Shown here: in pieces, positions 20,561 to 46,991 of the stretch
Position numbering within the stretch: position 1 is the first letter of the stretch
Layout of the letters: each line of letters opens with the position of its first letter
Source of the DNA: Escherichia coli
Lineage (GTDB): Bacteria; Pseudomonadota; Gammaproteobacteria; Enterobacterales; Enterobacteriaceae
DNA: 64,000 nt
Assembly (NCBI RefSeq): GCF_013122565.1
Contig: NZ_CP053258.1
Direction: 5' to 3' (one strand)
Made by a program: the position numbers and the translations under genes
Notes under the pieces: model-generated
The model's database searches: none
Seen by the model: the letters and a program-made list of their open reading frames with translations, nothing else
Told to the model about the DNA's origin: nothing

Positions 20561-20665
20561 ATGGACAAAAGCCCCAGGCGATATTTCTATCAACCTGAGG
20601 CTTACGTTCGAACCCAAACAATTCGAATGTTAGTCTCTTCTTTGCAGGGAGGCAAGACATGCTGA
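20561..20665 (+). CDS. mok-like leader ORF overlapping the hok start
   Basis: 34-codon ORF whose TGA overlaps the hok ATG (ATGCTGA) in another frame, the arrangement typical of hok/mok loci. Confidence 0.3.
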
Positions 20666-20811
20666 CAAAATATGCCCTTGTGGCAATCATCGTACTGTGT
20701 TGTACAGTACTGGGATTCACGCTGATGGTAGGCGACTCGTTGTGTGAGTTGAGTATCAGAGAACGTGGTATGGAGTTTAAGGCAGTTCTCGCTTACGAAT
20801 CGAAGAAGTAG
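20659..20811 (+). CDS. Hok/Gef-family type I toxin (50 aa small membrane protein)
   Basis: Hand translation [50 protein letters not shown] has the Hok pattern (TM helix, then L-C-E-hydrophobic, then a conserved AYES-type C-terminus); absent from the ORF track because under 60 aa. Confidence 0.75.
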
Positions 20812-24668: not shown

Positions 24669-25706
24669 TCAAGACGCCTTCGCCAACTCCTTCACCAGAG
24701 GTAGCATTATCCGCATAACGTCACGGCAGCGACGTTCTATTCTTCCAGGAAGTGCCTTATCAATATGCTGTTGATTATCCAGTCTTACGTCATGCCAGCT
24801 ATTTCCCGCAGGGAATGCGGCTGTTTTTGCGCGTTGCTGATAACCATCCTTATTCCCAAGATTCCAGTTAGTCGCTTCCACCGAAAGTACAGCAATGCCC
24901 GCTTTGTCGAATATTTCGGCGTCATTACAACATCCAGTGCCTTTCGGATAATTTTTATTCAAACCCGGATTGGTCGTTGCGGCAATTCCATGACTACGCG
25001 CAATTGCCAGCGCCCTGTCGCGCGTTAATTTCCTTACTGCTTCAGGGGTTTTTACACCGCTGTTGAAATACAATTTATCGCCAACAATTAAGTTATCGAG
25101 ATTAATCACCAGCAGCGTATTTTTCTTTTCGGTGTCACTCATCCGCTTGAGTAAATTCTCAGCGCCTAATTTTCCTTCCTCTTCGCCGCTGGTCGCCACA
25201 AATCGAATACCATACTCGGTAGGCGTATTTTTCAGGCGTTCTGCCAGTTCCAGCATGACACCTAAACCTGCGGCGTTATCATCTATTCCTTGTAACGTCA
25301 GTCCGCCGAGATTGGCATCGGCGTCAGCATCGCTCAGCGGGGCGTAAGTATCCAGATGCGCCATAATGATGATCTGCTGCGGCGCTTTGCCTTCATGAGC
25401 GGCAATCACCGTACTTCCCGTCACGTTATGCCAGCTCTTACGATTATCGCGGGCGGTATAAATATATCGACTATTAAATGTCCGAATATCACTGCGATAA
25501 CCCATTTGCTGAAACTGTTGGCGAATATAATCGGCAGATAACATTTCTGCAGGAGTTCCGGTCATGCGTCCCGGAAAGAAAGTAGCAATATGTCGTGCCT
25601 GGGTATTAGCAAAATCGCCAGGTTTAGGTGACGAGGCGTGTACGGGGAGAATAAAGCATACGCCGAGCGCCAGGGCAGCGGTACGGTGGCGCAATGCGGA
25701 AAACAT
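24669..25706 (-). CDS. iap: Alkaline phosphatase isozyme conversion aminopeptidase
   Basis: 345 aa; signal peptide plus M28-type peptidase; adjacent to the distal end of the array as in E. coli. Confidence 0.93.
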   Translation of the reverse strand: MFSALRHRTAALALGVCFILPVHASSPKPGDFANTQARHIATFFPGRMTGTPAEMLSADYIRQQFQQMGYRSDIRTFNSRYIYTARDNRKSWHNVTGSTVIAAHEGKAPQQIIIMAHLDTYAPLSDADADANLGGLTLQGIDDNAAGLGVMLELAERLKNTPTEYGIRFVATSGEEEGKLGAENLLKRMSDTEKKNTLLVINLDNLIVGDKLYFNSGVKTPEAVRKLTRDRALAIARSHGIAATTNPGLNKNYPKGTGCCNDAEIFDKAGIAVLSVEATNWNLGNKDGYQQRAKTAAFPAGNSWHDVRLDNQQHIDKALPGRIERRCRDVMRIMLPLVKELAKAS

Positions 25707-25957: not shown

Positions 25958-26866
25958 ATGGATCAAAAACGACTTACTCACCTGCGGCAACTGGAGGCGG
26001 AAAGCATCCACATTATTCGCGAGGTGGCGGCAGAATTCTCAAATCCGGTGATGCTCTACTCTATCGGTAAAGATTCCAGCGTCATGCTGCATCTGGCGCG
26101 CAAGGCGTTTTATCCAGGTACGCTGCCTTTCCCGTTGCTGCATGTTGATACCGGCTGGAAATTCCGCGAGATGTATGAGTTCCGCGATCGTACGGCGAAA
26201 GCCTACGGCTGCGAGCTGCTGGTGCATAAAAACCCGGAAGGCGTGGCGATGGGGATTAATCCATTCGTGCACGGCAGCGCGAAACATACCGATATTATGA
26301 AGACCGAAGGCCTGAAGCAGGCGCTGAATAAATACGGTTTTGATGCCGCCTTCGGTGGTGCGCGCCGTGACGAAGAGAAATCCCGCGCTAAAGAGCGAAT
26401 CTACTCTTTCCGTGACCGCTTCCATCGCTGGGATCCGAAAAATCAGCGCCCGGAGCTGTGGCACAACTACAACGGGCAAATTAATAAAGGCGAAAGCATC
26501 CGCGTCTTCCCGCTCTCTAACTGGACCGAGCAGGATATCTGGCAATACATCTGGCTGGAAAATATCGACATTGTTCCGCTGTATCTCGCTGCGGAACGAC
26601 CGGTTCTGGAACGTGACGGTATGTTGATGATGATTGATGACAACCGTATCGACCTGCAACCGGGCGAAGTCATTAAAAAACGGATGGTGCGTTTCCGTAC
26701 GCTGGGCTGCTGGCCGCTGACCGGTGCGGTGGAGTCAAATGCACAAACACTGCCGGAGATCATCGAAGAGATGCTGGTCTCCACCACCAGTGAACGTCAG
26801 GGTCGCGTGATTGACCGCGACCAGGCGGGATCCATGGAGCTGAAAAAACGTCAGGGGTATTTTTAA
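25958..26866 (+). CDS. cysD: Sulfate adenylyltransferase subunit 2
   Basis: 302 aa; PAPS-reductase-like fold. Confidence 0.96.
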
Positions 26867-26867
26867 G

Positions 26868-28295
26868 ATGAACACCGCACTTGCACAACAAATCGCCAAT
26901 GAAGGCGGCGTCGAAGCCTGGATGATTGCGCAACAACATAAAAGCCTGCTGCGTTTTCTGACCTGTGGTAGCGTCGATGACGGCAAAAGTACCCTGATTG
27001 GCCGCCTGCTGCACGATACCCGCCAAATCTACGAAGATCAGCTTTCATCGCTGCATAACGACAGTAAGCGTCACGGCACCCAGGGCGAAAAGCTGGATCT
27101 GGCACTGTTGGTGGACGGCCTGCAAGCTGAGCGCGAACAGGGCATCACCATTGACGTGGCTTACCGTTATTTCTCTACCGAGAAGCGTAAATTTATTATC
27201 GCCGACACCCCAGGACATGAGCAGTACACCCGCAATATGGCGACTGGCGCATCGACATGTGAACTGGCGATCTTACTGATCGATGCCCGTAAAGGCGTGC
27301 TCGATCAAACCCGTCGTCACAGTTTTATCTCCACACTGTTGGGGATCAAACATCTGGTCGTGGCGATCAACAAAATGGATCTGGTGGATTACAGTGAAGA
27401 GACGTTCACCCGTATTCGTGAAGATTATTTGACCTTTGCCGGGCAGCTGCCGGGTAATCTGGATATCCGCTTTGTGCCGCTCTCTGCACTGGAAGGCGAC
27501 AACGTGGCTTCGCAAAGTGAAAGTATGCCGTGGTACAGCGGTCCGACACTGCTCGAAGTGCTGGAAACCGTGGAGATCCAGCGAGTGGTGGATGCCCAGC
27601 CAATGCGCTTCCCGGTGCAGTACGTTAACCGCCCAAATCTCGATTTTCGTGGCTACGCCGGAACGCTGGCATCCGGTCGCGTGGAAGTCGGGCAACGTGT
27701 AAAAGTGCTGCCCTCTGGTGTGGAATCAAACGTCGCGCGGATCGTGACTTTTGATGGTGATCGCGAAGAAGCCTTTGCCGGAGAAGCGATCACCCTGGTG
27801 CTGACGGATGAGATCGACATCAGCCGTGGCGATCTGCTGCTGGCGGCAGACGAAGCGTTACCGGCGGTGCAGAGCGCGTCGGTGGATGTGGTATGGATGG
27901 CGGAACAGCCGCTTTCTCCAGGGCAGAGTTACGACATCAAAATTGCCGGTAAGAAGACGCGCGCGCGTGTTGATGGCATTCGCTATCAGGTTGATATTAA
28001 TAACCTTACCCAGCGTGAAGTTGAAAACCTGCCACTGAATGGGATCGGCCTCGTGGATCTCACTTTTGACGAGCCGCTGGTGTTAGATCGTTATCAACAA
28101 AATCCGGTGACGGGTGGGCTGATTTTTATCGATCGCCTGAGCAATGTGACCGTGGGTGCCGGTATGGTGCACGAGCCAGTTAGCCAGGCAACTGCTGCGC
28201 CATCTGAATTCAGTGCATTCGAACTGGAATTGAATGCTCTGGTTCGTCGCCACTTTCCGCACTGGGGCGCGCGCGATTTGCTGGGGGATAAATAA
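26868..28295 (+). CDS. cysN: Sulfate adenylyltransferase subunit 1 (GTPase)
   Basis: 475 aa; GTP-binding motifs ([19 protein letters not shown]). Confidence 0.96.
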
Positions 28296-28900
28296 TGGCG
28301 CTGCATGACGAAAACGTCGTCTGGCATAGCCATCCGGTCACTGTGCAACAACGCGAGCTACACCACGGTCATCGTGGTGTAGTGCTGTGGTTTACCGGCC
28401 TCTCTGGGTCCGGTAAATCAACGGTCGCCGGGGCGCTGGAGGAGGCGTTACATAAACTCGGCGTCAGTACGTATCTGCTGGATGGCGACAATGTTCGCCA
28501 CGGATTATGCAGCGATCTCGGTTTTAGCGATGCCGATCGTAAAGAGAATATCCGTCGCGTCGGTGAAGTGGCGAATTTGATGGTTGAAGCCGGACTGGTG
28601 GTGCTGACCGCATTTATCTCGCCACACCGCGCCGAACGCCAGATGGTTCGTGAACGCGTAGGAGAAGGGCGCTTTATCGAAGTGTTTGTCGATACGCCGC
28701 TTGCGATTTGCGAAGCCCGCGATCCAAAAGGCTTATATAAGAAAGCGCGTGCCGGTGAACTGCGCAACTTTACGGGAATAGATTCCGTTTACGAAGCGCC
28801 TGAATCGGCAGAAATTCATCTCAATGGTGAACAATTAGTAACAAATTTGGTACAGCAATTATTAGATCTGTTGAGACAGAACGATATTATCAGATCCTGA
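28295..28900 (+). CDS. cysC: Adenylylsulfate (APS) kinase
   Basis: 201 aa; P-loop GLSGSGKST; start overlaps the cysN stop. Confidence 0.96.
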
Positions 28901-28949
28901 GACACCACCGGGTTTCCATGCCCGGTTCGTCAAAGTAACAGGATCAAAT

Positions 28950-29273
28950 ATGCGTAATAGCCATAACATTACACTAACAAATAACGACAGCCTTACTGAG
29001 GATGAAGAAACCACATGGTCACTGCCTGGTGCCGTGGTCGGTTTTATCTCCTGGTTATTTGCGCTGGCGATGCCGATGTTGATTTATGGCTCTAACACGC
29101 TGTTCTTCTTTATCTACACCTGGCCTTTCTTTCTGGCGCTGATGCCCGTCGCGGTAGTGGTGGGGATTGCGCTGCATTCATTGATGGACGGAAAGCTACG
29201 ATACAGTATTGTTTTCACCCTGGTGACAGTAGGCATTATGTTTGGCGCACTGTTTATGTGGCTACTGGGCTAA
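28950..29273 (+). CDS. ygbE: DUF3561 inner-membrane protein YgbE
   Basis: 107 aa, hydrophobic helices; conserved position between cysC and ftsB. Confidence 0.8.
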   Translation: MRNSHNITLTNNDSLTEDEETTWSLPGAVVGFISWLFALAMPMLIYGSNTLFFFIYTWPFFLALMPVAVVVGIALHSLMDGKLRYSIVFTLVTVGIMFGALFMWLLG

Positions 29274-29466
29274 TTTGTACTTTCCCGTCTCCTCTGTTCA
29301 TAATTCAAACCGTAACTAATAATGAGATTATGTTCTGCACGCCCTGGGTATACGTAACAATGGACAAATGTGGTACATTTGCCCGCGTTGTCGCGGTATC
29401 CCCAACAGAGGATGTAGAGTCGTCTTCGGATGCATGGGATGATGATGCCGTTTTTCAGGGGGCAGG

Positions 29467-29778
29467 ATGGGTAAACTAACGCTGCTGTTGCTGGCTATTC
29501 TGGTCTGGCTACAGTATTCGCTGTGGTTCGGTAAGAACGGTATACATGACTATACCCGCGTCAATGATGATGTGGCGGCACAGCAAGCTACAAACGCGAA
29601 ACTTAAAGCGCGAAACGATCAACTTTTTGCCGAAATTGACGATCTCAATGGCGGCCAGGAGGCGCTCGAAGAGCGTGCGCGTAATGAACTCAGCATGACC
29701 AGGCCGGGCGAAACTTTTTATCGTCTGGTGCCTGACGCGTCGAAGCGCGCACAGTCTGCGGGGCAAAACAATCGATAA
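29467..29778 (+). CDS. ftsB: Cell division protein FtsB
   Basis: 103 aa; N-terminal TM segment plus coiled coil. Confidence 0.92.
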
Positions 29779-29796
29779 ATCAGCCCGGGAATTAAC

Positions 29797-30507
29797 ATGG
29801 CAACCACTCATTTGGATGTTTGCGCCGTGGTTCCGGCGGCCGGATTTGGCCGTCGAATGCAAACGGAATGTCCTAAGCAATATCTCTCAATCGGTAATCA
29901 AACCATTCTTGAACACTCGGTACATGCGCTGCTGGCACATCCCCGGGTGACACGTGTCGTCATTGCCATAAGTCCTGGCGATAGCCGTTTTGCACAACTT
30001 CCTCTGGCGAATCATCCGCAAATCACCGTTGTAGATGGCGGTGATGAGCGTGCCGATTCCGTGCTGGCAGGTCTGAAAGCCGCTGGCGATGCGCAGTGGG
30101 TATTGGTGCATGACGCCGCTCGTCCTTGTCTGCATCAGGATGACCTCGCGCGATTGTTGGCGTTGAGCGAAACCAGCCGCACGGGGGGGATCCTCGCCGC
30201 ACCAGTGCGCGATACTATGAAACGTGCCGAACCGGGCAAAAATGCCATTGCTCATACCGTTGATCGCAACGGCTTATGGCACGCGCTGACGCCGCAATTT
30301 TTCCCTCGTGAGCTGTTACATGACTGTCTGACGCGCGCTCTAAATGAAGGCGCGACTATTACCGACGAAGCCTCGGCGCTGGAATATTGCGGATTCCATC
30401 CTCAGTTGGTCGAAGGCCGTGCGGATAACATTAAAGTCACGCGCCCGGAAGATTTGGCACTGGCCGAGTTTTACCTCACCCGAACCATCCATCAGGAGAA
30501 TACATAA
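29797..30507 (+). CDS. ispD: 2-C-methyl-D-erythritol 4-phosphate cytidylyltransferase
   Basis: 236 aa; [21 protein letters not shown]. Confidence 0.95.
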
Positions 30508-30986
30508 TGCGAATTGGACACGGTTTTGACGTACACGCCTTTGGCGGTGAAGGCCCAATTATCATTGGTGGCGTACGCATTCCTTACGAAAAAGGATTGC
30601 TGGCGCATTCTGATGGCGACGTGGCGCTCCATGCGTTGACCGATGCATTGCTTGGCGCGGCGGCGCTGGGGGATATCGGCAAACTGTTCCCGGATACCGA
30701 TCCGGCATTTAAAGGTGCCGATAGCCGCGAGCTGCTACGCGAAGCCTGGCGTCGTATTCAGGCGAAGGGTTATACCCTTGGCAACGTCGATGTCACTATC
30801 ATCGCTCAGGCACCGAAGATGTTGCCGCACATTCCACAAATGCGCGTGTTTATTGCCGAAGATCTCGGCTGCCATATGGATGATGTTAACGTGAAAGCCA
30901 CTACTACGGAAAAACTTGGATTTACCGGACGTGGGGAAGGGATTGCCTGTGAAGCGGTGGCGCTACTCATTAAGGCAACAAAATGA
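30507..30986 (+). CDS. ispF: 2-C-methyl-D-erythritol 2,4-cyclodiphosphate synthase
   Basis: 159 aa; [13 protein letters not shown]. Confidence 0.96.
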
Positions 30987-32012
30987 TTGAGTTTGATAAT
31001 CTCACTTACCTCCACGGTAAACCGCAAGGCACCGGGCTGCTGAAAGCCAATCCGGAAGACTTTGTGGTGGTGGAAGATTTGGGCTTTGAGCCTGATGGTG
31101 AAGGTGAGCATATTCTGGTTAGAATCCTCAAAAACGGCTGCAATACCCGTTTTGTGGCGGATGCACTGGCGAAATTCCTGAAAATTCATTCCCGTGAAGT
31201 CAGCTTCGCTGGGCAAAAAGACAAACATGCTGTTACGGAACAGTGGTTATGCGCTCGCGTGCCGGGCAAAGAGATGCCCGATCTGAGTGCCTTTCAACTG
31301 GAAGGCTGCCAGGTGCTGGAGTATGCGCGGCACAAGCGTAAGTTGCGTTTAGGTGCACTAAAAGGTAATGCCTTCACTCTGGTGCTGCGCGATGTAAGCA
31401 ACCGTGACGATGTTGAACAACGTCTCATCGATATTTGCGTAAAAGGTGTACCGAACTACTTCGGTGCCCAACGTTTTGGGATTGGCGGTAGCAACTTGCA
31501 GGGTGCGCTGCGCTGGGCGCAAACCAATACTCCGGTGCGCGATCGCAATAAACGGAGTTTTTGGTTGTCGGCAGCCCGCAGTGCGTTGTTTAATCAGATT
31601 GTTGCTGAGCGCCTCAAAAAAGCAGACGTTAATCAAGTTGTTGACGGCGATGCGCTACAATTAGCCGGACGTGGTAGCTGGTTTGTCGCAACCACCGAAG
31701 AACTGGCGGAATTACAGCGTCGCGTCAACGATAAAGAGTTGATGATAACCGCCGCATTGCCGGGCAGTGGCGAATGGGGAACTCAGCGTGAAGCGCTGGC
31801 ATTCGAACAAGCAGCTGTCGCCGCAGAAACTGAATTACAAGCCTTACTGGTGCGCGAAAAAGTTGAAGCCGCGCGCAGAGCGATGCTGCTGTATCCGCAA
31901 CAATTAAGCTGGAACTGGTGGGATGACGTCACCGTAGAAATCCGTTTCTGGCTTCCGGCGGGTAGTTTTGCAACCAGCGTTGTCAGGGAACTTATCAACA
32001 CAACAGGTGATT

Positions 32013-32032
<20 letters not shown>
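30983..32032 (+). CDS. truD: tRNA pseudouridine13 synthase
   Basis: 349 aa; overlaps the ispF stop. Confidence 0.94.
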
Positions 32033-33394
<1,362 letters not shown>

Positions 33395-33532
33395 AACGTG
33401 AGGAAATACCTGGATTTTTCCTGGTTATTTTGCCGCAGGTCAGCGTATCGTGAACATCTTTTCCAGTGTTCAGTATGGTGCCTTGCACGGTAATTATGTC
33501 ACTGGTTATTAACCAATTTTCCTGGGGGATAA

Positions 33533-34672
33533 ATGAGCGCGGGAAGCCCAAAATTCACCGTTCGCCGCATTGCGGCATTGTCACTGGTTTCGCTATGGCT
33601 GGCAGGCTGTTCTGACACTTCAAATCCACCAGCACCGGTCAGCTCCGTTAATGGCAATGCGCCTGCAAATACCAATTCTGGTATGTTGATTACGCCGCCG
33701 CCGAAAATGGGGACGACGTCTACAGCGCAGCAACCGCAAATTCAGCCGGTGCAGCAGCCACAAATTCAGGCTACTCAACAACCGCAAATCCAGCCAGTGC
33801 AGCCAGTAGCTCAGCAGCCGGTACAGATGGAAAACGGACGCATCGTCTATAACCGTCAGTATGGGAACATTCCGAAAGGCAGTTATAGCGGCAGTACCTA
33901 TACCGTGAAAAAAGGCGACACGCTTTTCTATATCGCCTGGATAACTGGCAACGATTTCCGTGACCTTGCTCAGCGCAACAATATTCAGGCACCATACGCG
34001 CTGAACGTCGGTCAGACCTTACAGGTGGGTAATGCTTCCGGTACGCCAATCACTGGCGGAAATGCCATTACCCAGGCCGACGCAGCAGAGCAAGGAGTTG
34101 TGATCAAGCCTGCACAAAATTCCACCGTTGCTGTTGCGTCGCAACCGACAATTACGTATTCTGAGTCTTCGGGTGAACAGAGTGCTAACAAAATGTTGCC
34201 GAACAACAAGCCAACTGCGACCACGGTCACAGCGCCTGTAACGGTACCAACAGCAAGCACAACCGAGCCGACTGTCAGCAGTACATCAACCAGTACGCCT
34301 ATCTCCACCTGGCGCTGGCCGACTGAGGGCAAAGTGATCGAAACCTTTGGCGCTTCTGAGGGGGGCAACAAGGGGATTGATATCGCAGGCAGCAAAGGAC
34401 AGGCAATTATCGCGACCGCAGATGGCCGCGTTGTTTATGCCGGTAACGCGCTGCGCGGCTACGGTAATCTGATTATCATCAAACATAATGATGATTACCT
34501 GAGTGCCTACGCCCATAACGACACAATGCTGGTCCGGGAACAACAAGAAGTGAAGGCGGGGCAAAAAATAGCAACCATGGGTAGCACCGGAACCAGTTCA
34601 ACACGCTTGCATTTTGAAATTCGTTACAAGGGGAAATCCGTAAACCCGCTGCGTTATTTGCCGCAGCGATAA
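33533..34672 (+). CDS. nlpD: Lipoprotein NlpD (LysM plus M23 peptidase-like)
   Basis: 379 aa; lipobox LAGCS, Gln/Pro repeats, LysM and M23 domains. Confidence 0.94.
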
Positions 34673-34734
34673 ATCGGCGGAACCAGGCTTTTGCTTGAAT
34701 GTTCCGTCAAGGGATCACGGGTAGGAGCCACCTT

Positions 34735-35727
34735 ATGAGTCAGAATACGCTGAAAGTTCATGATTTAAATGAAGATGCGGAATTTGATGAGAACGGAGTT
34801 GAGGTTTTTGACGAAAAGGCCTTAGTAGAAGAGGAACCCAGTGATAACGATTTGGCCGAAGAGGAACTGTTATCGCAGGGAGCCACACAGCGTGTGTTGG
34901 ACGCGACTCAGCTTTACCTTGGTGAGATTGGTTATTCACCACTGTTAACGGCCGAAGAAGAAGTTTATTTTGCGCGTCGCGCACTGCGTGGAGATGTTGC
35001 CTCTCGCCGCCGGATGATCGAGAGTAACTTGCGTCTGGTGGTAAAAATTGCCCGCCGTTATGGCAATCGTGGTCTGGCGTTGCTGGACCTTATCGAAGAG
35101 GGCAACCTGGGGCTGATCCGCGCGGTAGAGAAGTTTGACCCGGAACGTGGTTTCCGCTTCTCAACATACGCAACCTGGTGGATTCGCCAGACGATCGAAC
35201 GGGCGATTATGAACCAAACCCGTACTATTCGTTTGCCGATTCACATCGTAAAGGAGCTGAACGTTTACCTGCGAACCGCACGCGAGTTGTCCCATAAACT
35301 GGACCACGAACCAAGTGCGGAAGAGATCGCAGAGCAACTGGATAAGCCAGTTGATGACGTCAGTCGTATGCTTCGTCTTAACGAGCGCATTACCTCGGTA
35401 GACACCCCGCTGGGTGGTGATTCCGAAAAAGCGTTGCTGGACATCCTGGCCGATGAAAAAGAGAACGGTCCGGAAGATACCACGCAAGATGACGATATGA
35501 AGCAGAGCATCGTCAAATGGCTGTTCGAGCTGAACGCCAAACAGCGTGAAGTACTGGCACGTCGATTCGGTTTGCTGGGGTACGAAGCGGCAACACTGGA
35601 AGATGTAGGTCGTGAAATTGGCCTCACCCGTGAACGTGTTCGCCAGATTCAGGTTGAAGGCCTGCGCCGTTTGCGCGAAATCCTGCAAACGCAGGGGCTG
35701 AATATCGAAGCGCTGTTCCGCGAATAA
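34735..35727 (+). CDS. rpoS: RNA polymerase sigma factor RpoS (sigma-38)
   Basis: ORF track 34699..35727; start [14 protein letters not shown] gives 330 aa; codon 33 is GAG (Glu) and the frame is intact. Confidence 0.96.
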
Positions 35728-35743
35728 GTAAGCATCTGTCAGA

Positions 35744-35780
35744 AAGGCCAGTCTCAAGCGAGGCTGGCCTTTTTTCTTTT
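35744..35780 (+). terminator. rpoS rho-independent terminator
   Basis: aaaggccag-tctcaagcgagg-ctggccttttttctttt. Confidence 0.7.
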
Positions 35781-35847
35781 GTTTGGGAAGCATGTGTTTT
35801 TGTCGCCTGGATAAGACACGTCAGCGTCCTACCCGGCAATCAGCATT

Positions 35848-36255
35848 CTATGTGTTCATCATCTTGCGCACCAACTGCATAAACAGCTCCTGCTCTTCTG
35901 CACTCAAACGCCCCAAAAATTCCTCATCCACGCTGTCACCAATGGGGATCGCCGCAGCAAGTACCTTTTCTCCTTCGGCAGTCAGCCAGACAAAGCGTCG
36001 CCGCTTGTCAGCGGCGTCATGTTCACGTCTGACTAAGCCACGATTTTCCATTCTTGCCAACATTTCTGCCAGCGTTGCTTTGGTGCTGACTGCTGCTTCT
36101 ATCAGTGCCACCTGTTCGATACCAGGCTTATCAGCAATGGCGCGCATCACCGCGTACTGTGGTTTGGTCAGGTCAGGTAACTCGTGCTGCCAGCGAGCCG
36201 TGTGCTGCTGAAAAAGCTGTCGTAACTGATGGAACGCTTTATTTCGTAACGCCAT
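35848..36255 (-). CDS. MarR/SlyA-family transcriptional regulator
   Basis: 135 aa; winged-helix MarR-like sequence; divergent from the decarboxylase genes. Confidence 0.8.
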   Translation of the reverse strand: MALRNKAFHQLRQLFQQHTARWQHELPDLTKPQYAVMRAIADKPGIEQVALIEAAVSTKATLAEMLARMENRGLVRREHDAADKRRRFVWLTAEGEKVLAAAIPIGDSVDEEFLGRLSAEEQELFMQLVRKMMNT

Positions 36256-36370
36256 GTAAACTCCGGGCTAATTCTCTGCCGCTATCATAGCGGTTTTTCA
36301 GTGACGAAGAAGATGTTGTTACTTTTCAGCGCTTGCCGCGATGAAAACAGAGGCGTATTTTAATAATAAC

Positions 36371-36384
36371 GTTCGTATACGAAC
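36371..36384. promoter_or_regulatory. Candidate operator: perfect 14-bp palindrome GTTCGTATACGAAC
   Basis: Perfect inverted repeat about 18 bp upstream of the UbiX-like start, in the divergent intergenic region with the MarR-family gene. Confidence 0.4.
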
Positions 36385-36401
36385 AATTTAGAGAGTAAGC
36401 A

Positions 36402-36995
36402 ATGAAACTGATCGTCGGGATGACAGGGGCCACCGGAGCGCCTCTTGGTGTGGCATTACTGCAAGCACTGCGGGAGATGCCGAATGTCGAGACTCATCTG
36501 GTGATGTCGAAGTGGGCGAAAACCACCATTGAACTGGAAACGCCTTACAGCGCCCGCGATGTTGCTGCCCTCGCTGACTTCAGCCATAACCCGGCGGATC
36601 AGGCGGCGACCATCTCCTCAGGTTCCTTTCGTACCGACGGCATGATCGTTATTCCGTGCAGTATGAAAACGCTCGCAGGTATCCGTGCCGGTTACGCCGA
36701 TGGCCTGGTAGGGCGCGCGGCGGACGTCGTGCTCAAAGAAGGCCGCAAACTGGTGCTGGTGCCGCGTGAAATGCCGCTTAGCACCATCCATCTCGAAAAT
36801 ATGCTCGCACTTTCACGCATGGGCGTGGCGATGGTGCCGCCGATGCCTGCCTTTTATAACCATCCCGAAACGGTAGATGACATTGTCCACCATGTGGTAG
36901 CCCGCGTGTTGGATCAATTTGGCCTCGAACATCCCCACGCCAGGCGCTGGCAAGGATTGCCGCAGGCCCTGAATTTTTCTCAGGAGAATGAATAA
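36402..36995 (+). CDS. UbiX/Pad1-family flavin prenyltransferase (decarboxylase B subunit)
   Basis: 197 aa; MKLIVGMTGATGA... flavoprotein fold of the UbiX family. Confidence 0.85.
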   Translation: MKLIVGMTGATGAPLGVALLQALREMPNVETHLVMSKWAKTTIELETPYSARDVAALADFSHNPADQAATISSGSFRTDGMIVIPCSMKTLAGIRAGYADGLVGRAADVVLKEGRKLVLVPREMPLSTIHLENMLALSRMGVAMVPPMPAFYNHPETVDDIVHHVVARVLDQFGLEHPHARRWQGLPQALNFSQENE

Positions 36996-38422
36996 TGGCA
37001 TTTGATGATTTACGCAGCTTTTTACTGGCGCTTGATGACCACGGCCAGTTACTGAAAATCAGCGAAGAGGTGAACGCGGAACCGGATCTGGCAGCAGCAG
37101 CTAACGCCACCGGGCGTATCGGCGATGGCGCGCCCGCGCTGTGGTTTGATAATATTCGCGGTTTTACCGATGCGCGCGTGGCGATGAATACCATCGGTTC
37201 CTGGCAGAACCACGCGATTTCCCTCGGCCTGCCGCCAAACACGCCGGTCAAAAAGCAGATTGATGAGTTTATCCGCCGCTGGGATAACTTCCCGATCGCC
37301 CCGGAGCGCCGCGCCAATCCAGCCTGGGCGCAGAACACCGTCGATGGCGACGAGATTAACCTGTTCGATATTCTGCCGCTGTTTCGTTTAAACGACGGTG
37401 ATGGCGGTTTCTATCTCGATAAAGCGTGCGTGGTTTCCCGCGACCCGCTCGATCCGGATAACTTCGGCAAGCAGAACGTCGGTATCTACCGCATGGAAGT
37501 GAAGGGCAAACGTAAGCTCGGCCTGCAACCGGTGCCGATGCACGATATCGCCCTGCATCTGCATAAAGCGGAAGAGCGCGGTGAAGATCTGCCGATTGCG
37601 ATCACCCTCGGTAACGATCCGATCATCACCCTGATGGGCGCCACCCCGCTGAAATACGATCAGTCTGAGTACGAAATGGCGGGCGCACTGCGCGAAAGCC
37701 CGTACCCGATCGCTACCGCGCCATTGACCGGTTTTGACGTGCCGTGGGGTTCTGAAGTGATCCTCGAAGGCGTTATCGAAAGCCGCAAACGTGAAATCGA
37801 AGGGCCATTCGGTGAGTTTACCGGCCACTACTCCGGCGGGCGTAACATGACCGTGGTGCGCATCGATAAAGTCTCTTACCGCACCAGGCCGATTTTCGAA
37901 TCGCTGTACCTCGGCATGCCGTGGACCGAAATCGACTACCTGATGGGGCCTGCCACCTGCGTGCCGCTTTACCAGCAACTGAAAGCCGAGTTCCCGGAAG
38001 TGCAGGCGGTAAACGCCATGTACACCCACGGCCTGCTGGCGATTATCTCCACCAAAAAACGCTACGGCGGCTTTGCCCGCGCGGTGGGGCTGCGAGCAAT
38101 GACAACGCCGCATGGTTTGGGCTACGTGAAGATGGTGATTATGGTCGATGAAGACGTTGATCCGTTCAACCTGCCACAGGTGATGTGGGCGCTCTCCTCG
38201 AAAGTGAACCCGGCGGGCGACCTGGTGCAGTTGCCGAATATGTCCGTGCTGGAACTCGACCCAGGTTCAAGCCCGGCGGGGATCACCGACAAGCTGATTA
38301 TCGACGCCACCACGCCTGTTGCCCCGGACAACCGTGGTCACTACAGCCAGCCGGTGGTGGATTTACCGGAAACCAAAGCCTGGGCTGAAAAACTGACCGC
38401 TATGCTGGCCGCACGTAAATAA
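36995..38422 (+). CDS. UbiD-family (prenyl-FMN-dependent) aromatic acid decarboxylase, C subunit
   Basis: 475 aa; translationally coupled to the UbiX-like gene (ATAATGG overlap). Confidence 0.85.
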   Translation: MAFDDLRSFLLALDDHGQLLKISEEVNAEPDLAAAANATGRIGDGAPALWFDNIRGFTDARVAMNTIGSWQNHAISLGLPPNTPVKKQIDEFIRRWDNFPIAPERRANPAWAQNTVDGDEINLFDILPLFRLNDGDGGFYLDKACVVSRDPLDPDNFGKQNVGIYRMEVKGKRKLGLQPVPMHDIALHLHKAEERGEDLPIAITLGNDPIITLMGATPLKYDQSEYEMAGALRESPYPIATAPLTGFDVPWGSEVILEGVIESRKREIEGPFGEFTGHYSGGRNMTVVRIDKVSYRTRPIFESLYLGMPWTEIDYLMGPATCVPLYQQLKAEFPEVQAVNAMYTHGLLAIISTKKRYGGFARAVGLRAMTTPHGLGYVKMVIMVDEDVDPFNLPQVMWALSSKVNPAGDLVQLPNMSVLELDPGSSPAGITDKLIIDATTPVAPDNRGHYSQPVVDLPETKAWAEKLTAMLAARK

Positions 38423-38432
38423 GGAGAACAAG

Positions 38433-38669
38433 ATGATTTGTCCACGTTGTGCCGATGAACAGATTGAAGTGATGGCGAAATCGCCGGTGAAAGATGTCTG
38501 GACGGTCTACCAGTGCCAGCATTGCCTTTATACCTGGCGCGATACCGAACCGCTACGCCGCACCAGTCGCGAACATTACCCGGAAGCGTTTCGCATGACG
38601 CAGAAAGATATTGATGATGCGCCAATGGTGCCGAGCATCCCGCCGCTGCTGGCGGCAGATAAGCGTTAA
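38433..38669 (+). CDS. Small zinc-ribbon decarboxylase subunit (D subunit)
   Basis: 78 aa with two CxxC pairs (CPRC ... CQHC); third gene of a B-C-D decarboxylase operon. Confidence 0.75.
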   Translation: MICPRCADEQIEVMAKSPVKDVWTVYQCQHCLYTWRDTEPLRRTSREHYPEAFRMTQKDIDDAPMVPSIPPLLAADKR

Positions 38670-38710
38670 TAAAAAAGTGCTGGGTAGAGGCTTTGCTTTA
38701 CCCGGCCACG

Positions 38711-39367
38711 TTATTTAATTTTATAAAACGATAACCGTCCACTCTCCGGCGAGCCGGTATCAATATAAACTTGATTGGCAAATGTCTGGATATTGGTAAA
38801 CATCATATGCCCGAAGATAAAACAGTCTGCACCGTTTATTTCTTTTAACTCTCCCTTGAATGATTTCTGCACGCGATCAACAGGCCAGAGTAATTCTCTT
38901 TCTGCTATTTCTTTACCAAACTGATATTCATCACCCGGATAATCCGCATGTGCGATGACATATTTTATTCTGTCGTTAGTGATTTCAATAATATGTGGAA
39001 GGTGATGAAATTTCAGCAACAGATCTATTGCCTCTTGTTGCTCTGAATCATTTAAATCGAAAAACCAGTCACCACCGCTGGCAAGCCACATGTTGCCATC
39101 GCCGGTCGCGAACGCATCCAGCGCCATTGCTTCGTGGTTGCCTTTAACGGAGATAAACCAGGGCTGGTTTAGCAGGCGCAGGACGCTAAGACTCTCCGGC
39201 CCACGATCAATATTATCGCCGACAGAAATAAGTAAGTCGGTTTCGGGGAAAAAAGAGAGTTGATGTAAACGGGATTGTAATAACTGATATTCACCATGAA
39301 TATCACCAACGACCCATATATGGCGATAGTGACGGGCATTGATTTTTTGATAGCGTGTAGATGGCAT
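38711..39367 (-). CDS. pphB: Serine/threonine protein phosphatase 2 (lambda-phosphatase-like)
   Basis: 218 aa; metallophosphatase motifs GDIHG, GDNIDRG, GNHE; adjacent to mutS. Confidence 0.88.
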   Translation of the reverse strand: MPSTRYQKINARHYRHIWVVGDIHGEYQLLQSRLHQLSFFPETDLLISVGDNIDRGPESLSVLRLLNQPWFISVKGNHEAMALDAFATGDGNMWLASGGDWFFDLNDSEQQEAIDLLLKFHHLPHIIEITNDRIKYVIAHADYPGDEYQFGKEIAERELLWPVDRVQKSFKGELKEINGADCFIFGHMMFTNIQTFANQVYIDTGSPESGRLSFYKIK

Positions 39368-39472
39368 GGTTTTACCCTGTAAAATAAGCTTTCCTATTAT
39401 ACAGGGTATTTTTATTTGATTCGTCAGTTGTCGTTAATATTCCCGATAGCAAAAGACTATCGGGAATTGTTA

Positions 39473-42034
39473 TTACACCAGACTCTTCAAGTGATAAATC
39501 CACTCCAGCGCCTGACGCGGGGTCAGTGAATCCGGGTCGAGATTTTCCAGCGCTTCCACCGCGGGCGAGGTTTCTTCCGGCACTGAAAGCAGCGACATCT
39601 GCGTACCATCAACCTGCGTAGCGGCGGCATTCGGCGAAATGCTCTCCAGCTCGCGCAGTTTCTGCCGCGCACGCTTGATCACCTCTTTCGGCACACCCGC
39701 CAGCGCAGCAACCGCCAGGCCGTAGCTTTTGCTCGCCGCGCCGTCCTGCACGCTGTGCATAAAGGCAATGGTATCGCCGTGCTCCAGTGCATCGAGATGC
39801 ACGTTGGCGACGCCTTCCATTTTCTCCGGTAACTGGGTCAGCTCGAAATAGTGGGTAGCAAACAACGTCAACGCTTTAATCTTATTCGCCAGATTTTCCG
39901 CGCACGCCCACGCCAGCGACAGACCATCGTAAGTGGACGTTCCACGCCCAATCTCATCCATCAGCACCAGACTGTACTCGGTGGCGTTATGTAAAATATT
40001 GGCGGTTTCGGTCATTTCCACCATAAAGGTTGAACGGCCGGAAGCCAGATCGTCCGCTGCCCCTACGCGGGTAAAGATGCGATCGATAGGTCCAATCTCG
40101 ACTTTTTGTGCCGGTACATAGCTGCCGATGTAGGCCATCAACGCAATCAGTGCGGTCTGGCGCATATAGGTACTTTTACCGCCCATATTCGGACCGGTAA
40201 TGATCAACATGCGACGCTGCGGCGACAGGTTCAGCGGGTTGGCGATAAACGGCTCATTCAGCACCTGTTCAACCACCGGATGGCGGCCTTCGGTGATGCG
40301 AATACCCGGTTTATCAATAAAGGTCGGGCAGGTGTAGTTCAGGGTATAGGCCCGCTCTGCCAGGTTAACCAGCACATCAAGTTCTGCCAGCGCGCTTGCG
40401 CTCTGTTGCAACGCTTCCAGATGCGGCAACAGCAGGTCGAACAGCTCTTCATAAAGCTGTTTTTCCAGTGCCAGTGCTTTGCCTTTTGAGGTGAGAACTT
40501 TATCTTCGTACTCTTTTAGCTCTGGAATAATGTAGCGTTCGGCGTTTTTCAGCGTCTGGCGGCGCATGTAGTTAATCGGAGCCAGGTGGCTTTGCCCACG
40601 GCTGATCTGAATGTAATAGCCATGCACCGCGTTAAAGCCAACTTTCAGCGTGTCCAGGCCGGTACGTTCACGCTCGCGGATTTCCAGACGCTCCAGATAA
40701 TCGGTCGCGCCGTCAGCCAGCGCGCGCCACTCATCCAGCTCTTCGTTATAGCCCGATGCGATAACACCACCGTCGCGTACCAGCACTGGCGGTGTGTCGA
40801 TGATTGCTCGCTCCAGCAGATCGCGCAGCTCGGCAAACTCGCCCATCTTCTCACGCAGCGCCTGTACCGGTGCACTATCGACGCCTTCCAGTTGCGCACG
40901 AAGTTCCGGCAGTTGCTGGAAAGCGTGACGCATACGGGCCAGATCGCGTGGGCGAGCGGTACGCAACGCCAGACGCGCCAGAATACGTTCCAGGTCGCCG
41001 ACCTGACGCAGTACCGGCTGCAGCTCGGCGGTGAAATCCTGCAATGCGCCAATAGTTTGCTGGCGCTCAAGCAACACGCGGGTATCGCGCACTGGCATAT
41101 GCAGCCAGCGCTTCAGCATACGGCTACCCATCGGCGTTACAGTGCAGTCGAGTACGGAAGCCAGCGTGTTTTCCGCACCACCCGCCAGATTCTGGGTGAT
41201 TTCCAGATTTCGACGCGTCGCGGCATCCATAATGATGCTGTCCTGCTCACGTTCCATGGTGATAGAACGAATATGCGGCAGGGTTGTGCGTTGGGTATCT
41301 TTCGCATACTGCAACAGACAACCGGCAGCACAAAGTCCGCGCGGCGCGTTCTCGACGCCGAAACCAATCAGATCACGAGTACCAAATTGCAGGTTCAACT
41401 GCTGGCGCGCGGTGTCGATTTCAAACTCCCACAGCGGGCGACGGCGCAGACCGCGACGACCTTCAATTAACGACATTTCAGCAAAATCTTCTGCATACAG
41501 CAGTTCCGCCGGATTAGTGCGTTGCAGTTCTGCCGCCATCGTTTCCCGGTCAGCCGGTTCGCTAAGGCGAAAACGACCGGAGCTGATATCCAGCGTCGCG
41601 TAGCCGAAACCTTTACTGTCCTGCCAGATAGCCGCCAACAGGTTGTCCTGACGCTCCTGCAACAGCGCTTCATCACTGATGGTGCCTGGCGTAACGATAC
41701 GCACAACTTTGCGCTCAACCGGACCTTTGCTGGTCGCCGGATCGCCAATTTGTTCGCAGATGGCAACGGACTCGCCCTGATTCACCAGTTTGGCGAGGTA
41801 GTTTTCCACCGCATGGTAGGGGATCCCCGCCATCGGGATCGGCTCGCCCGCTGAAGCGCCGCGTTTGGTCAGTGAAATATCCAGCAGTTGCGACGCGCGT
41901 TTTGCGTCGTCATAAAACAGTTCATAAAAATCACCCATCCGGTAAAACAGCAGGATCTCGGGATGCTGGGCTTTCAGCTTGAGATACTGCTGCATCATGG
42001 GCGTATGGGCGTCGAAATTTTCTATTGCACTCAT
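39473..42034 (-). CDS. mutS: DNA mismatch repair protein MutS
   Basis: 853 aa; Walker [10 protein letters not shown]. Confidence 0.97.
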
Positions 42035-42280
42035 GGGGTTATGTCCGGTTCCCTGATATTAAATGGGGTGTGATGGTTTTTATTTTCGTTGTAATCACAT
42101 AAGGCGCACATGATACCGGAGTTAATCATTTCAGGGGAAGAAGCGAACGGCGAGTTCTTGATGCTGGTTCCGGGAAAGATGCTGTTTTGCAGCTTTTGCG
42201 TGATGCTTATGAAGCAAGTACGCAAAATTGTATCGGTTGAATAAACCTCCTCCTTCAGAGCCATAGTCCCCTTTCAAATT

Positions 42281-42303
42281 AAGTTGTAGTATAAATACAC
42301 CTT
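42281..42303 (+). promoter_or_regulatory. Candidate NsrR-type operator upstream of ygbA
   Basis: aagttgtagtataaatacacctt, an imperfect AT-rich inverted repeat about 20 bp upstream of ygbA; the match to the NsrR consensus is approximate and from memory. Confidence 0.3.
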
Positions 42304-42320
42304 AAGAGTATGGAGGCAGT

Positions 42321-42674
42321 ATGTCCGGCAAGCGTATCTCTCGTGAAAAACTGACGATTAAAAAAATGATCGATCTTTATCAAGCGAAATGCCCGCAGGC
42401 GTCAGCGGAGCCGGAGCATTACGAGGCGTTGTTTGTTTACGCGCAAAAGCGGCTGGATAAATGTGTGTTCGGCGAACAGAAACCAGCCTGTAAGCAGTGT
42501 CCGGTGCACTGTTACCAGCCTGCAAAGCGTGAAGAGATGAAACAGATTATGCGTTGGGCCGGGCCGAGAATGCTGTGGCGTCATCCGATCTTAACCGTGC
42601 GTCATCTCATTGATGACAAGCGTCCGGTGCCAGAACTGCCGGAAAAATATCGTCCGAAAAAACCTCGTGAATAG
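42321..42674 (+). CDS. ygbA: Nitrous oxide-stimulated promoter family protein YgbA
   Basis: 117 aa, Cys-rich (CPQ...CKQCPVHC); conserved neighbour of mutS and fhlA. Confidence 0.85.
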   Translation: MSGKRISREKLTIKKMIDLYQAKCPQASAEPEHYEALFVYAQKRLDKCVFGEQKPACKQCPVHCYQPAKREEMKQIMRWAGPRMLWRHPILTVRHLIDDKRPVPELPEKYRPKKPRE

Positions 42675-42710
42675 TATGCCGGACAGGCAGATCTGTCCGG
42701 CAATTTGCAG

Positions 42711-44789
42711 TTAAATCAATGCCGATTTATCAATTCCAAGCCGCTTCATCCGTGACAGCAGGGTCGTGCGTTTCAGCCCCAGACGTTGCGCAGCGCCTTT
42801 AGGCCCGGCAACCACGCCATTAGTTTCTTTCAGCACGCGCACAATCAACTGATATTCATCTTCGCCCTCCTGAGCGACAACCGTTGCGGCAGGCGGCGTT
42901 TCAGGTTCCGGTAAAGCAATATCTGGCAATGACAGCTGCAGCACGTTACCGCGTGTTAGCAATACCGCGCGCTCAATGACGTTTTCCAGTTCGCGTACGT
43001 TACCCGGCCACTCCATGTTGCTCAAGGTGCGCAGCGTCTCGGCAGGAATGCTGTCGATATTGCGCCCCAGACGACGGGCAATTTTGAAGGTAAAGGCTTT
43101 CGCCAGCAGAGGAATATCTTCCGGACGCTCGCGTAGTGGCGGCAGGTGAATCGGGAATACGTTCAGGCGGTAATAGAGATCGCTACGGAACTCACGGTCG
43201 GCGACCATTTTTTTCAGATCGCGGTTAGTCGCGGCGATTAGACGCACGTCCGTCTGAATGATTTTGTTGCTGCCGAGACGTTCAAACTCCTGTTCCTGTA
43301 ATACACGCAGCAACTTCGGCTGTAACTCCAGTGGCATATCGCCCACTTCGTCGAGGAACAGGGAGCTTTTATCCGCCAGTTCAAAACGACCAATGCGCTG
43401 GGCGCTGGCACCGGTAAAAGCTCCGCGTTCATGACCAAACAGATCGCTTTCCAGCAATCCGGCAGGCATTGCCGCGCAGTTCATTTTGACCATGCGGCGA
43501 GTATTACGTCCACTGAGATTATGGATAGCGCGGGCAATCAGCTCTTTACCCGTGCCAGTTTCACCGAGGATCAGCACGGTACTGTCACTTTGCGCCACCA
43601 TTTCAACTTGTTTAAGCACGCTGTACATGGCTTCGCTGCGGCCAATAATCTCGCCAAATTCACTATCAACATTGTTGAGCTGCTCGGTCAGGGCGAGGTT
43701 TTCATCAACCAGCCGTTCTTTCAGACGATGGATTTCCTGATAGGCGAGGGCGTTATCGACAGCGATTGCCACACGTTCGGCAATCTGGCGCAGTAAATTC
43801 AGATTGGTAGTGGTAAATACTTTCTCTTCGCATTGCGCCAGTTTCAGCACGCCCAGCATGGTGTCGCCAGACATCAGCGGTAACAGGCACAAGGTTTGAA
43901 TCTGGTTGCCCCAGGTGTCGAACAACATACGTTCATAGGGGGCTAAATCGTCCCGCTCGTGGAGATTGATCAGCAGCATCTCTTTACTTTTGAACACGCG
44001 TTCGGTGAGGGTTCCGGCTTCATCGACTTCACTCTGTTCGTGGGCGGGATGCTGTTTATCAAGATAGTGAGTGGAGTAGATGTTGAGTTTGTTTTTACGG
44101 TGGCTGCGTAAGACGATACTGATATCGTCAATATCGAAATAGTAATGGATTTCTTTGGCGACTTCGCTGACCAGTTCGTCCATATCCAGGCGGGAAAGCA
44201 CCGCGTTGGTGATGGCGACCAGGATGCGGAAGTTATCGCGTTCCCGGCATAACAACTCATAGTCAACATTGTTAACGACGCGACTCTGGATTTGTTCGGT
44301 GACGACAGAAACGATCTGCGTAAATGTTTGCAGACGATTGAACTCTTTTTCGCTCCAGGGGCGATCGTCATAACGAATAAATTCACAGCCACCAAAAATA
44401 TGCCCTTCTGCCGCCAGTGGCATCAGGCAATAGTGACCAAATTTTGGGTATAGCCCACCTGCGGCCAGCTGCGGCCAGGTTTCACAAAATTCTTCGTAAC
44501 TGCAATGCAGCGTATCAGGGCGCGACAAAATGCTGCGTACCGGACCGTGTGCCAGAACAGTTTCGTCTTCATATTTAATGGGGGTGTCTTTTTCACGCGA
44601 CGCGTAATAAGACGCACGTTGAGTCTGCGCTTGCCACAACACGATAGCCGCGTTGTCGGCGAGCGCAGAACGCTTTACCAGTTGCGAAAGAGCCTCACAC
44701 AGCGAGGCCAGATCGGGCTGCTGCAATAGTGTCCGAGTGATGTCGAACAACCCTTGCTGTCCGAGATCACTCATCGGTGTATATGACAT
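42711..44789 (-). CDS. fhlA: Formate hydrogenlyase transcriptional activator (sigma-54 enhancer-binding protein)
   Basis: ORF track 42711..44825; start at MSYTPMSDLGQQG gives 692 aa; GAF domains, AAA+ sigma-54 interaction module (GETGTGKE, GAFTGA), C-terminal HTH. Confidence 0.95.
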   Translation of the reverse strand: MSYTPMSDLGQQGLFDITRTLLQQPDLASLCEALSQLVKRSALADNAAIVLWQAQTQRASYYASREKDTPIKYEDETVLAHGPVRSILSRPDTLHCSYEEFCETWPQLAAGGLYPKFGHYCLMPLAAEGHIFGGCEFIRYDDRPWSEKEFNRLQTFTQIVSVVTEQIQSRVVNNVDYELLCRERDNFRILVAITNAVLSRLDMDELVSEVAKEIHYYFDIDDISIVLRSHRKNKLNIYSTHYLDKQHPAHEQSEVDEAGTLTERVFKSKEMLLINLHERDDLAPYERMLFDTWGNQIQTLCLLPLMSGDTMLGVLKLAQCEEKVFTTTNLNLLRQIAERVAIAVDNALAYQEIHRLKERLVDENLALTEQLNNVDSEFGEIIGRSEAMYSVLKQVEMVAQSDSTVLILGETGTGKELIARAIHNLSGRNTRRMVKMNCAAMPAGLLESDLFGHERGAFTGASAQRIGRFELADKSSLFLDEVGDMPLELQPKLLRVLQEQEFERLGSNKIIQTDVRLIAATNRDLKKMVADREFRSDLYYRLNVFPIHLPPLRERPEDIPLLAKAFTFKIARRLGRNIDSIPAETLRTLSNMEWPGNVRELENVIERAVLLTRGNVLQLSLPDIALPEPETPPAATVVAQEGEDEYQLIVRVLKETNGVVAGPKGAAQRLGLKRTTLLSRMKRLGIDKSALI

Positions 44790-44862
44790 TTTGTTCTTCC
44801 AGGAAAGCACCGCAAAGCGGTGCAAAAGGTCATTGACTAACTATAGGAGATTTAGAATTTTA

Positions 44863-45873
44863 TTAGCATATACGCGGAAGCGGTTCGGCGTGTGGTAAAT
44901 CGAGGGTTCGTTTCACGCCATACAGACCGGCAAGACGAACACCTTTACGTTCCACCACTTCACCAATCAGCGCCGCGTCTTTCCCCAGTGGATGGGAATG
45001 TAACGCTGCCAAAACTTGCTCTGCCGCGTTGCGTTCAACGGCGATCACCAGTTTGCCTTCATTGGCAAAGTTAAGGGCGTCCAGTCCCAGTAGTTCGCAA
45101 ACGCCGCGCACAGCAGGTTTAACCGGCAGTGCCGCTTCTGAAAGTTCAATACCGCAACCGCAGGCTGCCGCGAACTCATGAACCACCGCGTTTACACCAC
45201 CACGGGTGGCATCACGCAGCGCTTTCACGCCGGGAATGTCACGCAGCGTCTGAATAAGCGGCGTCAGCACCGCGCAGTCGCTGACCAGTTCGCCATCCAG
45301 CCCCAGTTGCTCACGCAGGTTAAGGATAGTCGCCCCGTGGTCGCCGAGTGTACCGCTCACCAGCAACACATCGCCTGCACTTAACGTTTGTGCGCCCCAG
45401 TGAATATTCGCCGGAATTGCGCCCATGCCAGCGGTGTTGATAAACAGTTTATCTGCCGCGCCGCGCTGCACCACTTTAGTATCGCCAGTAACGATGGCAA
45501 TGCCTGCCGTGCGGGCGGTTTCTGCCATGCTGGTCACTACGGCTTTCAGTGTCTCCATCGGCAATCCTTCTTCGAGGATAAAGCCACAGGAGAGATAGCG
45601 CGGAATAGCGCCACTGACCGCAACGTCATTGGCGGTGCCGCAAATCGCCAGCTTGCCGATATTACCGCCAGGGAAGAACAGCGGGTCAATAACGTAACTG
45701 TCGGTGGAGAACGCCAGACGGTCGCCTTCCGCTACCAGTTGCGCCAGATCAAGACGTGCCTGATCTTCCTGCTCTGCCAGCCACGGGTTGGTAAAGGCTT
45801 CCATAAACAGGCTGTTGATTAATTGCTGCATCGCCTGGCCGCCGCTGCCGTGGGCGAGTTGGATATTATTCAC
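44863..45873 (-). CDS. hypE: Hydrogenase maturation carbamoyl dehydratase HypE
   Basis: 336 aa; C-terminal PRIC motif. Confidence 0.95.
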   Translation of the reverse strand: MNNIQLAHGSGGQAMQQLINSLFMEAFTNPWLAEQEDQARLDLAQLVAEGDRLAFSTDSYVIDPLFFPGGNIGKLAICGTANDVAVSGAIPRYLSCGFILEEGLPMETLKAVVTSMAETARTAGIAIVTGDTKVVQRGAADKLFINTAGMGAIPANIHWGAQTLSAGDVLLVSGTLGDHGATILNLREQLGLDGELVSDCAVLTPLIQTLRDIPGVKALRDATRGGVNAVVHEFAAACGCGIELSEAALPVKPAVRGVCELLGLDALNFANEGKLVIAVERNAAEQVLAALHSHPLGKDAALIGEVVERKGVRLAGLYGVKRTLDLPHAEPLPRIC

Positions 45874-46991
45874 GCTTCACTCTCCTGCTGACGATACTGA
45901 TACCACGCGGCGCACGCTCCTTCGGAGGAAACCATCAGCGCACCAAACGCGGTTTGAGGATTACAGGTGTTACCAAACAGCGGGCATTGATGCGGCTTAC
46001 ATTTGCCCGTCAAGACTTCGCCACAACGCGCGCGCGGGTCATCGCAGACCTGCTGCGGTGCCGGGCGGAAATGTGCTTCGGCATCGAATCGTTGATAATC
46101 CGGCGTCAGGTGCACGCCAGAAGATTCAATCACGCCTAAGCCGCGCCATTCGCTGTCGCCGTTGACACAGAACACATCGGCAATCGCCTGTTGCGCCAGC
46201 AGGTTACCGGCATCCGGTACCACCCGACGATACTGATTCTCTACCTTGCTGTGGGCCGCTATTTTCTGCTCCACCAGCATCACCACGCCTTGCAGTAGAT
46301 CAAGGGGTTCGAAACCAGCGACCACCAGCGGACGATGAAAATCGCTGGCGATAAAATTATAGGCATCAGTGCCGATAACCATACTAACGTGGCCCGGCGC
46401 GAGGAACGCGTCGATACCGTTATCCGGCTGTTCCAGCAAACTGCGCAGCGTCGGGATAAGCGTAATATGCTGGCAGAAGAAGTAAAAATTCTGCACATCG
46501 CGGGCTTTCGCCTGTTGCAGGGTGATGGCGGTGGTCGGCATGGTGGTTTCAAAACCTAAGCCGAAGAACACCACTTTGCGGGTTGGATTCTCCTGCGCCA
46601 GTTTCAACGCATCCATCGGCGAGTAAACGATGCGCACATCGGCACCGCGTGCTTTTGCCTGCAACAGCGATCCCTGTTTCCCCGGCACGCGCATGGCGTC
46701 GCCAAAGGTACAGAAGATGACTTCCGGATGGCTGGCAATCTCCACGCAGGTGTCGATTCTGCCCATCGGCAGTACGCACACCGGGCAACCCGGACCGTGG
46801 ATAAACTCAACGTTTTCAGGCAGTAACTGGTCGAGGCCGAATTTAAAAATGGCGTGGGTATGACCGCCGCACACTTCCATAATCCGCAGAGGGCGTTCGG
46901 CGGTGTAAGAGAGATGTGAAGCACGTTCGCGCAGATGCTCAATTAACTGCATCACCTGTTCCGGCGCGCGATATTCATCAACAAAACGCAT
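45870..46991 (-). CDS. hypD: Hydrogenase maturation factor HypD
   Basis: 373 aa; Fe-S Cys motifs (CGGHTH, GPGCPVC). Confidence 0.95.
   Translation of the reverse strand: MRFVDEYRAPEQVMQLIEHLRERASHLSYTAERPLRIMEVCGGHTHAIFKFGLDQLLPENVEFIHGPGCPVCVLPMGRIDTCVEIASHPEVIFCTFGDAMRVPGKQGSLLQAKARGADVRIVYSPMDALKLAQENPTRKVVFFGLGFETTMPTTAITLQQAKARDVQNFYFFCQHITLIPTLRSLLEQPDNGIDAFLAPGHVSMVIGTDAYNFIASDFHRPLVVAGFEPLDLLQGVVMLVEQKIAAHSKVENQYRRVVPDAGNLLAQQAIADVFCVNGDSEWRGLGVIESSGVHLTPDYQRFDAEAHFRPAPQQVCDDPRARCGEVLTGKCKPHQCPLFGNTCNPQTAFGALMVSSEGACAAWYQYRQQESEA

Follow-up and report, generated by a model that had tools for sequence, protein, structure and literature searches.

Does an Escherichia coli strain whose rpoS gene carries Glu at codon 33 possess an intact and functional allele of the stationary-phase and general stress sigma factor (sigma-S), and does this codon tell us anything about the strain? 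The question was raised by a 64-kb stretch of E. coli DNA (64,000 nt, hereafter the window), in which the original prediction described rpoS as intact and therefore functional. Lesions of rpoS often build up in stored or nutrient-limited cultures, and the accompanying remark that they are common in stored strains is well supported for natural as well as stored isolates by the ECOR table, which lists many frameshift and amber alleles (PMC3074542). Codon 33 has been found as TAG, CAG, TAT or GAG among K-12 stocks, and it is usually GAG in natural isolates (PMC2700278).

RESULTS

The interval encodes a complete RpoS protein

The reading frame runs from ATG 34735 to TAA 35725-35727, i.e. 993 nt and 330 aa, exactly at the coordinates and length first proposed for it, and translation of this interval revealed neither an internal stop nor a frameshift (Table 1). 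The protein was aligned over its full length by two RpoS equivalog profiles, the NCBIfam profile NF004207 (604.6 bits, cut-off 394, E = 5e-182; RpoS residues 1-329 on profile positions 1-329 of 329) and TIGR02394 (480.7 bits versus a cut-off of 378.7). Sigma-70 regions 1.2 (Pfam Sigma70_r1_2, aa 56-88), 2 (r2, aa 94-163), 3 (r3, aa 174-248) and 4 (r4, aa 262-315) were each detected above the gathering score, giving the complete and uninterrupted architecture of a group 2 sigma-70 factor.

Moreover, 329 of the 330 residues agree with RpoS as it appears in the RNA polymerase holoenzyme structures 6kj6, 5ipl and 6omf, which have the K-12 sequence. The exact protein was present in at least 1,000 contigs of a public protein collection, and the gene lies in the order surE-pcm-nlpD-rpoS, as in K-12 and in the E. 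coli genomes GF131 and AH04. The gene product is RpoS beyond doubt.

Table 1. Positions of rpoS, its expression signals and other features of the window
Feature	Position (nt)	Strand	Evidence
hok/sok locus, chromosomal (sok antitoxin RNA)	20517-20674	+	Rfam RF01794, 113 bits
Truncated cas3 ORF, 447 aa, HD domain only	21049-22392		ORF, Pfam
Orphan type I-E-style CRISPR array	22360 to about 24560		
iap	24669-25706	-	ORF
nlpD, 379 aa, LysM + M23 peptidase-like, conserved upstream neighbour	33533-34672	+	ORF; annotation in K-12, GF131, AH04
rpoS mRNA 5' leader, mostly inside nlpD (presumed extent)	34168-34734	+	Placed from K-12 knowledge
Shine-Dalgarno AGGAG	34723-34727	+	Direct sequence reading; 7 nt 5' of rpoS ATG; same in K-12
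rpoS CDS, 330 aa + TAA, stationary-phase/general stress sigma factor sigma-S	34735-35727	+	ORF, translation, NF004207, Pfam, PDB identity
Codon 33, GAG (Glu), species-wide wild-type state	34831-34833	+	Direct reading, MG1655 comparison
rpoS intrinsic terminator, strong, 15-pair stem then T-run	35741-35774	+	Terminator scan
Non-K-12 segment between rpoS and mutS	35848-39367	.	ORFs, Pfam, RefSeq annotation of colinear GF131/AH04 loci, gene calls on 100%-identical contig
MarR-family regulator	35848-36255	-	ORF, Pfam, RefSeq colinear loci
Hydroxyarylic acid decarboxylase subunit B	36402-36995		ORF, Pfam, RefSeq colinear loci
Hydroxyarylic acid decarboxylase subunit C	36995-38422		ORF, Pfam, RefSeq colinear loci
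Hydroxyarylic acid decarboxylase subunit D	about 38433-38669		ORF, Pfam, RefSeq colinear loci
pphB	38711-39367	-	ORF, Pfam, RefSeq colinear loci
mutS	39473-42034	-	ORF, Pfam

The start codon required a decision, as the ORF listing stretches the rpoS frame upstream to an in-frame ATG at 34699, and the frame is indeed open from that codon, so that the true product might be a 342-aa form initiated there. By direct reading of the sequence, no Shine-Dalgarno sequence precedes ATG 34699, against the AGGAG found 7 nt before ATG 34735, and residue 1 of the shorter, 330-aa version is where the NF004207 alignment begins. That version is also the one annotated by RefSeq in all genomes compared and chosen by the PDB depositors, while the upstream ATG is also present in K-12 and thus cannot set the present allele apart. 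The upstream start was therefore rejected, and there is hardly any prospect that the 342-aa form is the true RpoS product.

Codon 33 is in the common state of the species

Glu (GAG) at codon 33, as had been read originally, was confirmed at its position in the frame. Alignment to the reference protein of K-12 MG1655 (b2741, NP_417221.1), which had been suggested as a check, gave 329 of 330 identical residues with Q33E (CAG to GAG) as the only change; the two genes share length, start, Shine-Dalgarno sequence and terminator. All 330 residues, Glu33 included, are identical to WP_000081550.1, the common non-K-12 RpoS found in GF131 and AH04.

To see how codon 33 is distributed, three versions of a 61-mer centred on it were compared with 5,426 complete E. 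coli genomes. The GAG version had an exact match in 4,818 of the 5,414 complete genomes having a match, and the three records listed for it include an O157:H7. The CAG (Gln) version was found in 173 complete genomes, and most of the 40 records listed bear the name of an MG1655 or K-12 line or a laboratory-strain tag; the TAG (amber) version was found in 121, and the 40 records listed include W3110, J53, AG100, HMS174, S17-1, ER27xx lines and BLR(DE3). In the remaining ∼300 genomes the 61-mer differs at other positions. These counts agree with the published documentation of amber and Gln alleles in K-12 derivatives (PMC2700278, PMC3074542), and the polymorphism first noted at this codon is real. 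Moreover, the sequenced ECOR strains are, with few exceptions, recorded as ‘Q33E’ when K-12 is the reference (PMC3074542).

Outside the species, E. albertii and Leclercia share Glu at residue 33, and the position is acidic in Sodalis and Hafnia. From Glu in E. albertii and Leclercia together with the GAG majority, we infer that Glu33 is ancestral and that Gln and amber were derived within K-12. Glu33 is thus the ancestral default of the species, carried by about nine-tenths of sequenced E. coli, with Gln and amber as a peculiarity of K-12, and as the species default it is uninformative.

The residue precedes region 1.2 and belongs to the acidic N-terminal part of RpoS, which is poorly conserved; homology to Pseudomonas RpoS structures starts only at about residue 52. 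In K-12 strains with amber at codon 33, an N-terminally truncated, partly active sigma-S is still made. The K-12 rpoS(Am) strains (W3110, J53, AG100, HMS174 and others) differ from the window at this polymorphic codon of the shared gene: they have a premature TAG in place of the sense codon GAG that allows a full-length product here. Neither CAG nor TAG on a K-12 rpoS backbone is what the window holds.

The nucleotide allele and its expression signals

At the DNA level, rpoS differs from that of MG1655 at nine nucleotides, and the eight differences besides codon 33 are synonymous. From GF131 it differs at three, all synonymous, and hence the protein equals WP_000081550.1. None of the 5,426 complete E. 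coli genomes has an rpoS of identical DNA sequence; the closest reaches 99.7% with three synonymous differences, and the sites setting this gene apart from every complete genome are synonymous as well (L55 TTG, D118 GAC and S210 AGT). Thus the exact nucleotide allele has no characterised twin, while the protein has one.

Upstream, Pfam LysM and Peptidase_M23 were found for nlpD on an identical contig of the Logan collection, and the ten differences of nlpD from K-12 are all synonymous. We take the rpoS promoter to lie inside nlpD, as known from K-12, and the leader length of ∼567 nt and the position of the transcription start are likewise assumed from the K-12 literature. Within the 567 nt 5' of the rpoS ATG, differences from K-12 occur only at -294, -183 and -162, all of them synonymous in nlpD and common to GF131 and AH04, and the sequence from -161 to -1 is identical to that of K-12. 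A scan of positions 33400-36400 for the sigma-70 promoter consensus gave 0 sites (2.3 expected by chance), a result that says nothing on the known promoter inside nlpD, and in an Rfam scan of the window no curated family covered the rpoS leader. Taken together, the Shine-Dalgarno sequence, the leader and the terminator match those of other E. coli, and nothing in them suggests a regulatory lesion.

An intact frame might still be an attenuated or silent allele in vivo, through its leader, its promoter, trans-acting regulators or lineage-specific synonymous changes. The rpoS DNA is indeed at least three synonymous sites away from every complete genome, and strains with wild-type rpoS sequences still differ in how much RpoS they contain; factors outside rpoS, ppGpp and RssB among them, alter both its level and its activity from strain to strain (PMC3074542). 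Against this, the leader, the Shine-Dalgarno sequence and the terminator agree with K-12 as well as with other wild E. coli, each of the few leader differences is shared with two of the latter, and the synonymous changes are far from the translation-initiation region. We therefore regard attenuation as improbable, and the interval is very probably the intact wild-type rpoS of a natural, non-K-12 E. coli, predicted to be functional, a reading that nothing in the sequence contradicts.

The window derives from a rarely sampled lineage

The core regions of the window (barA-relA-pyrG and hyp-hyc-asc) reach at most 98.3-98.8% identity to any of the 5,426 complete E. coli genomes. Much closer relatives were found elsewhere: a Logan contig (SRR11451224) matches the window at 100% identity over 7,428 nt, and the NCBI assembly GCA_052983875.1 matches it at 99.99%. 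The exact decarboxylase C protein carries the NCBI label Escherichia coli (WP_171460458.1, QJU27250.1), and a lineage-specific 26-mer of pphB had 0 matches among the GTDB species representatives, which is consistent with a lineage inside the E. coli species cluster that is not its own species representative.

As GAG has been reported in some K-12 stocks (PMC2700278), the window might in principle belong to a K-12 laboratory derivative with the GAG variant, in which case codon 33 would mark a particular K-12 pedigree. This is refuted by the eight further synonymous differences from MG1655 in rpoS, by the loss of K-12 homology at ∼35774, directly after the rpoS terminator, where ygbN-ygbI are replaced by the MarR-family regulator, decarboxylase BCD and pphB, and by flanks whose low identity to the complete genomes holds for K-12 lines included; its probability is negligible. 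MG1655 has Gln33 (CAG) and ygbN downstream, whereas the window has Glu33 (GAG) and the MarR/decarboxylase cluster. The source of the window is thus a rarely sampled, natural, non-K-12 lineage of E. coli. The K-12 setting in which codon 33 was originally placed does not apply here, although the polymorphism itself does exist: the window is non-K-12, and GAG is merely the default there.

The segment between rpoS and mutS

The neighbours of rpoS in GF131 and AH04 match those in the window, with nlpD upstream and MarR, decarboxylase BCD, pphB and mutS downstream. An slyA/kpdR-kpdBCD cluster beside rpoS, without ygbN, is the mutS-rpoS arrangement of the O157:H7/O55:H7 type (Ewers et al. 2014, PMC4209514), whose gene order is the same as here. 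Positions 26000-46000 form one colinear alignment piece with O55:H7 CB9615 and others, but the window holds a diverged allele of this arrangement, as the segment 36300-41500 reached a best identity of 94.8% among the 5,426 complete genomes. From the 3' end of rpoS onwards, divergence climbs across the decarboxylase genes and pphB and on into mutS (35600-42300), with its peak in pphB (11-13%, or as many as 26 differences, per 200 nt); in mutS, at ∼40875-40912, 8-9 mismatches fall inside single 30-mers.

The mutS-rpoS region has long been known to be mosaic (PMC4209514), and the pattern over 35600-42300 resembles recombination import at this known hot spot, rpoS itself being 99.7% identical. We tentatively consider it possible, though not the likelier case, that in this rarely sampled E. 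coli lineage the stretch from the rpoS 3' end through pphB to mutS, diverged by ∼5% and locally by 11-13% from all 5,426 complete genomes, was acquired through recombination with an unsampled Escherichia lineage, and that one breakpoint falls at the rpoS terminator or close to it. If so, the highly conserved rpoS would border a recombination hot spot.

A related locus was seen in the ENA metagenome scaffold ERZ28599614 (4714-7428), 97% identical over nlpD-rpoS-decarboxylase and with the same exact decarboxylase C protein as the window. There, ygbN-like (GntP permease), ygbM-like and ygbL-like genes follow, not pphB and mutS, which makes it the other arrangement, with the decarboxylase cluster inserted beside K-12-type ygb genes.

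Other features of the window

Two further loci were observed at a distance from rpoS. An orphan CRISPR array of type I-E style, in which the 29-nt repeat GTGTTCCCCGCGCCAGCGGGGATAAACCG occurs at least 35 times with spacers of 32 nt, starts inside the 3' end of the truncated cas3 ORF. On the + strand between this cas3 stub and iap, no ORF of at least 150 aa was found, and no cascade, cas1 or cas2 was seen; the annotation of E. coli AH04 shows this layout too. The chromosomal hok/sok locus is flanked by cysH and the cas3 stub, at a place where a Hok/Gef gene is annotated in AH04, and its sok RNA belongs to the only Rfam family above gathering score in the window.

DISCUSSION

Intact rpoS with Glu33 is a correct but ordinary observation: it adds nothing new to what is already known. 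As for the step from an intact gene to a functional allele, both the consensus sequence and the expression signals were confirmed as intact, and function is to be read as a prediction, not as a phenotype. We predict a functional allele from the agreement of its protein, ribosome-binding site, leader and terminator with the common state of E. coli, and it is on this basis that we infer activity in vivo. In stationary phase and under stress, the 330-aa sigma-S would then bind core RNA polymerase, and the sigma-S-bound polymerase would transcribe the general stress regulon.

The intact gene matters only as a routine point of annotation. Glu33 is a marker of nothing; the diagnostic alleles are Gln33 and the amber at codon 33, which point to K-12 pedigrees. 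For the strain itself, RpoS proficiency is predicted, and its stress, acid and stationary-phase phenotypes would not be expected to be compromised by rpoS lesions.
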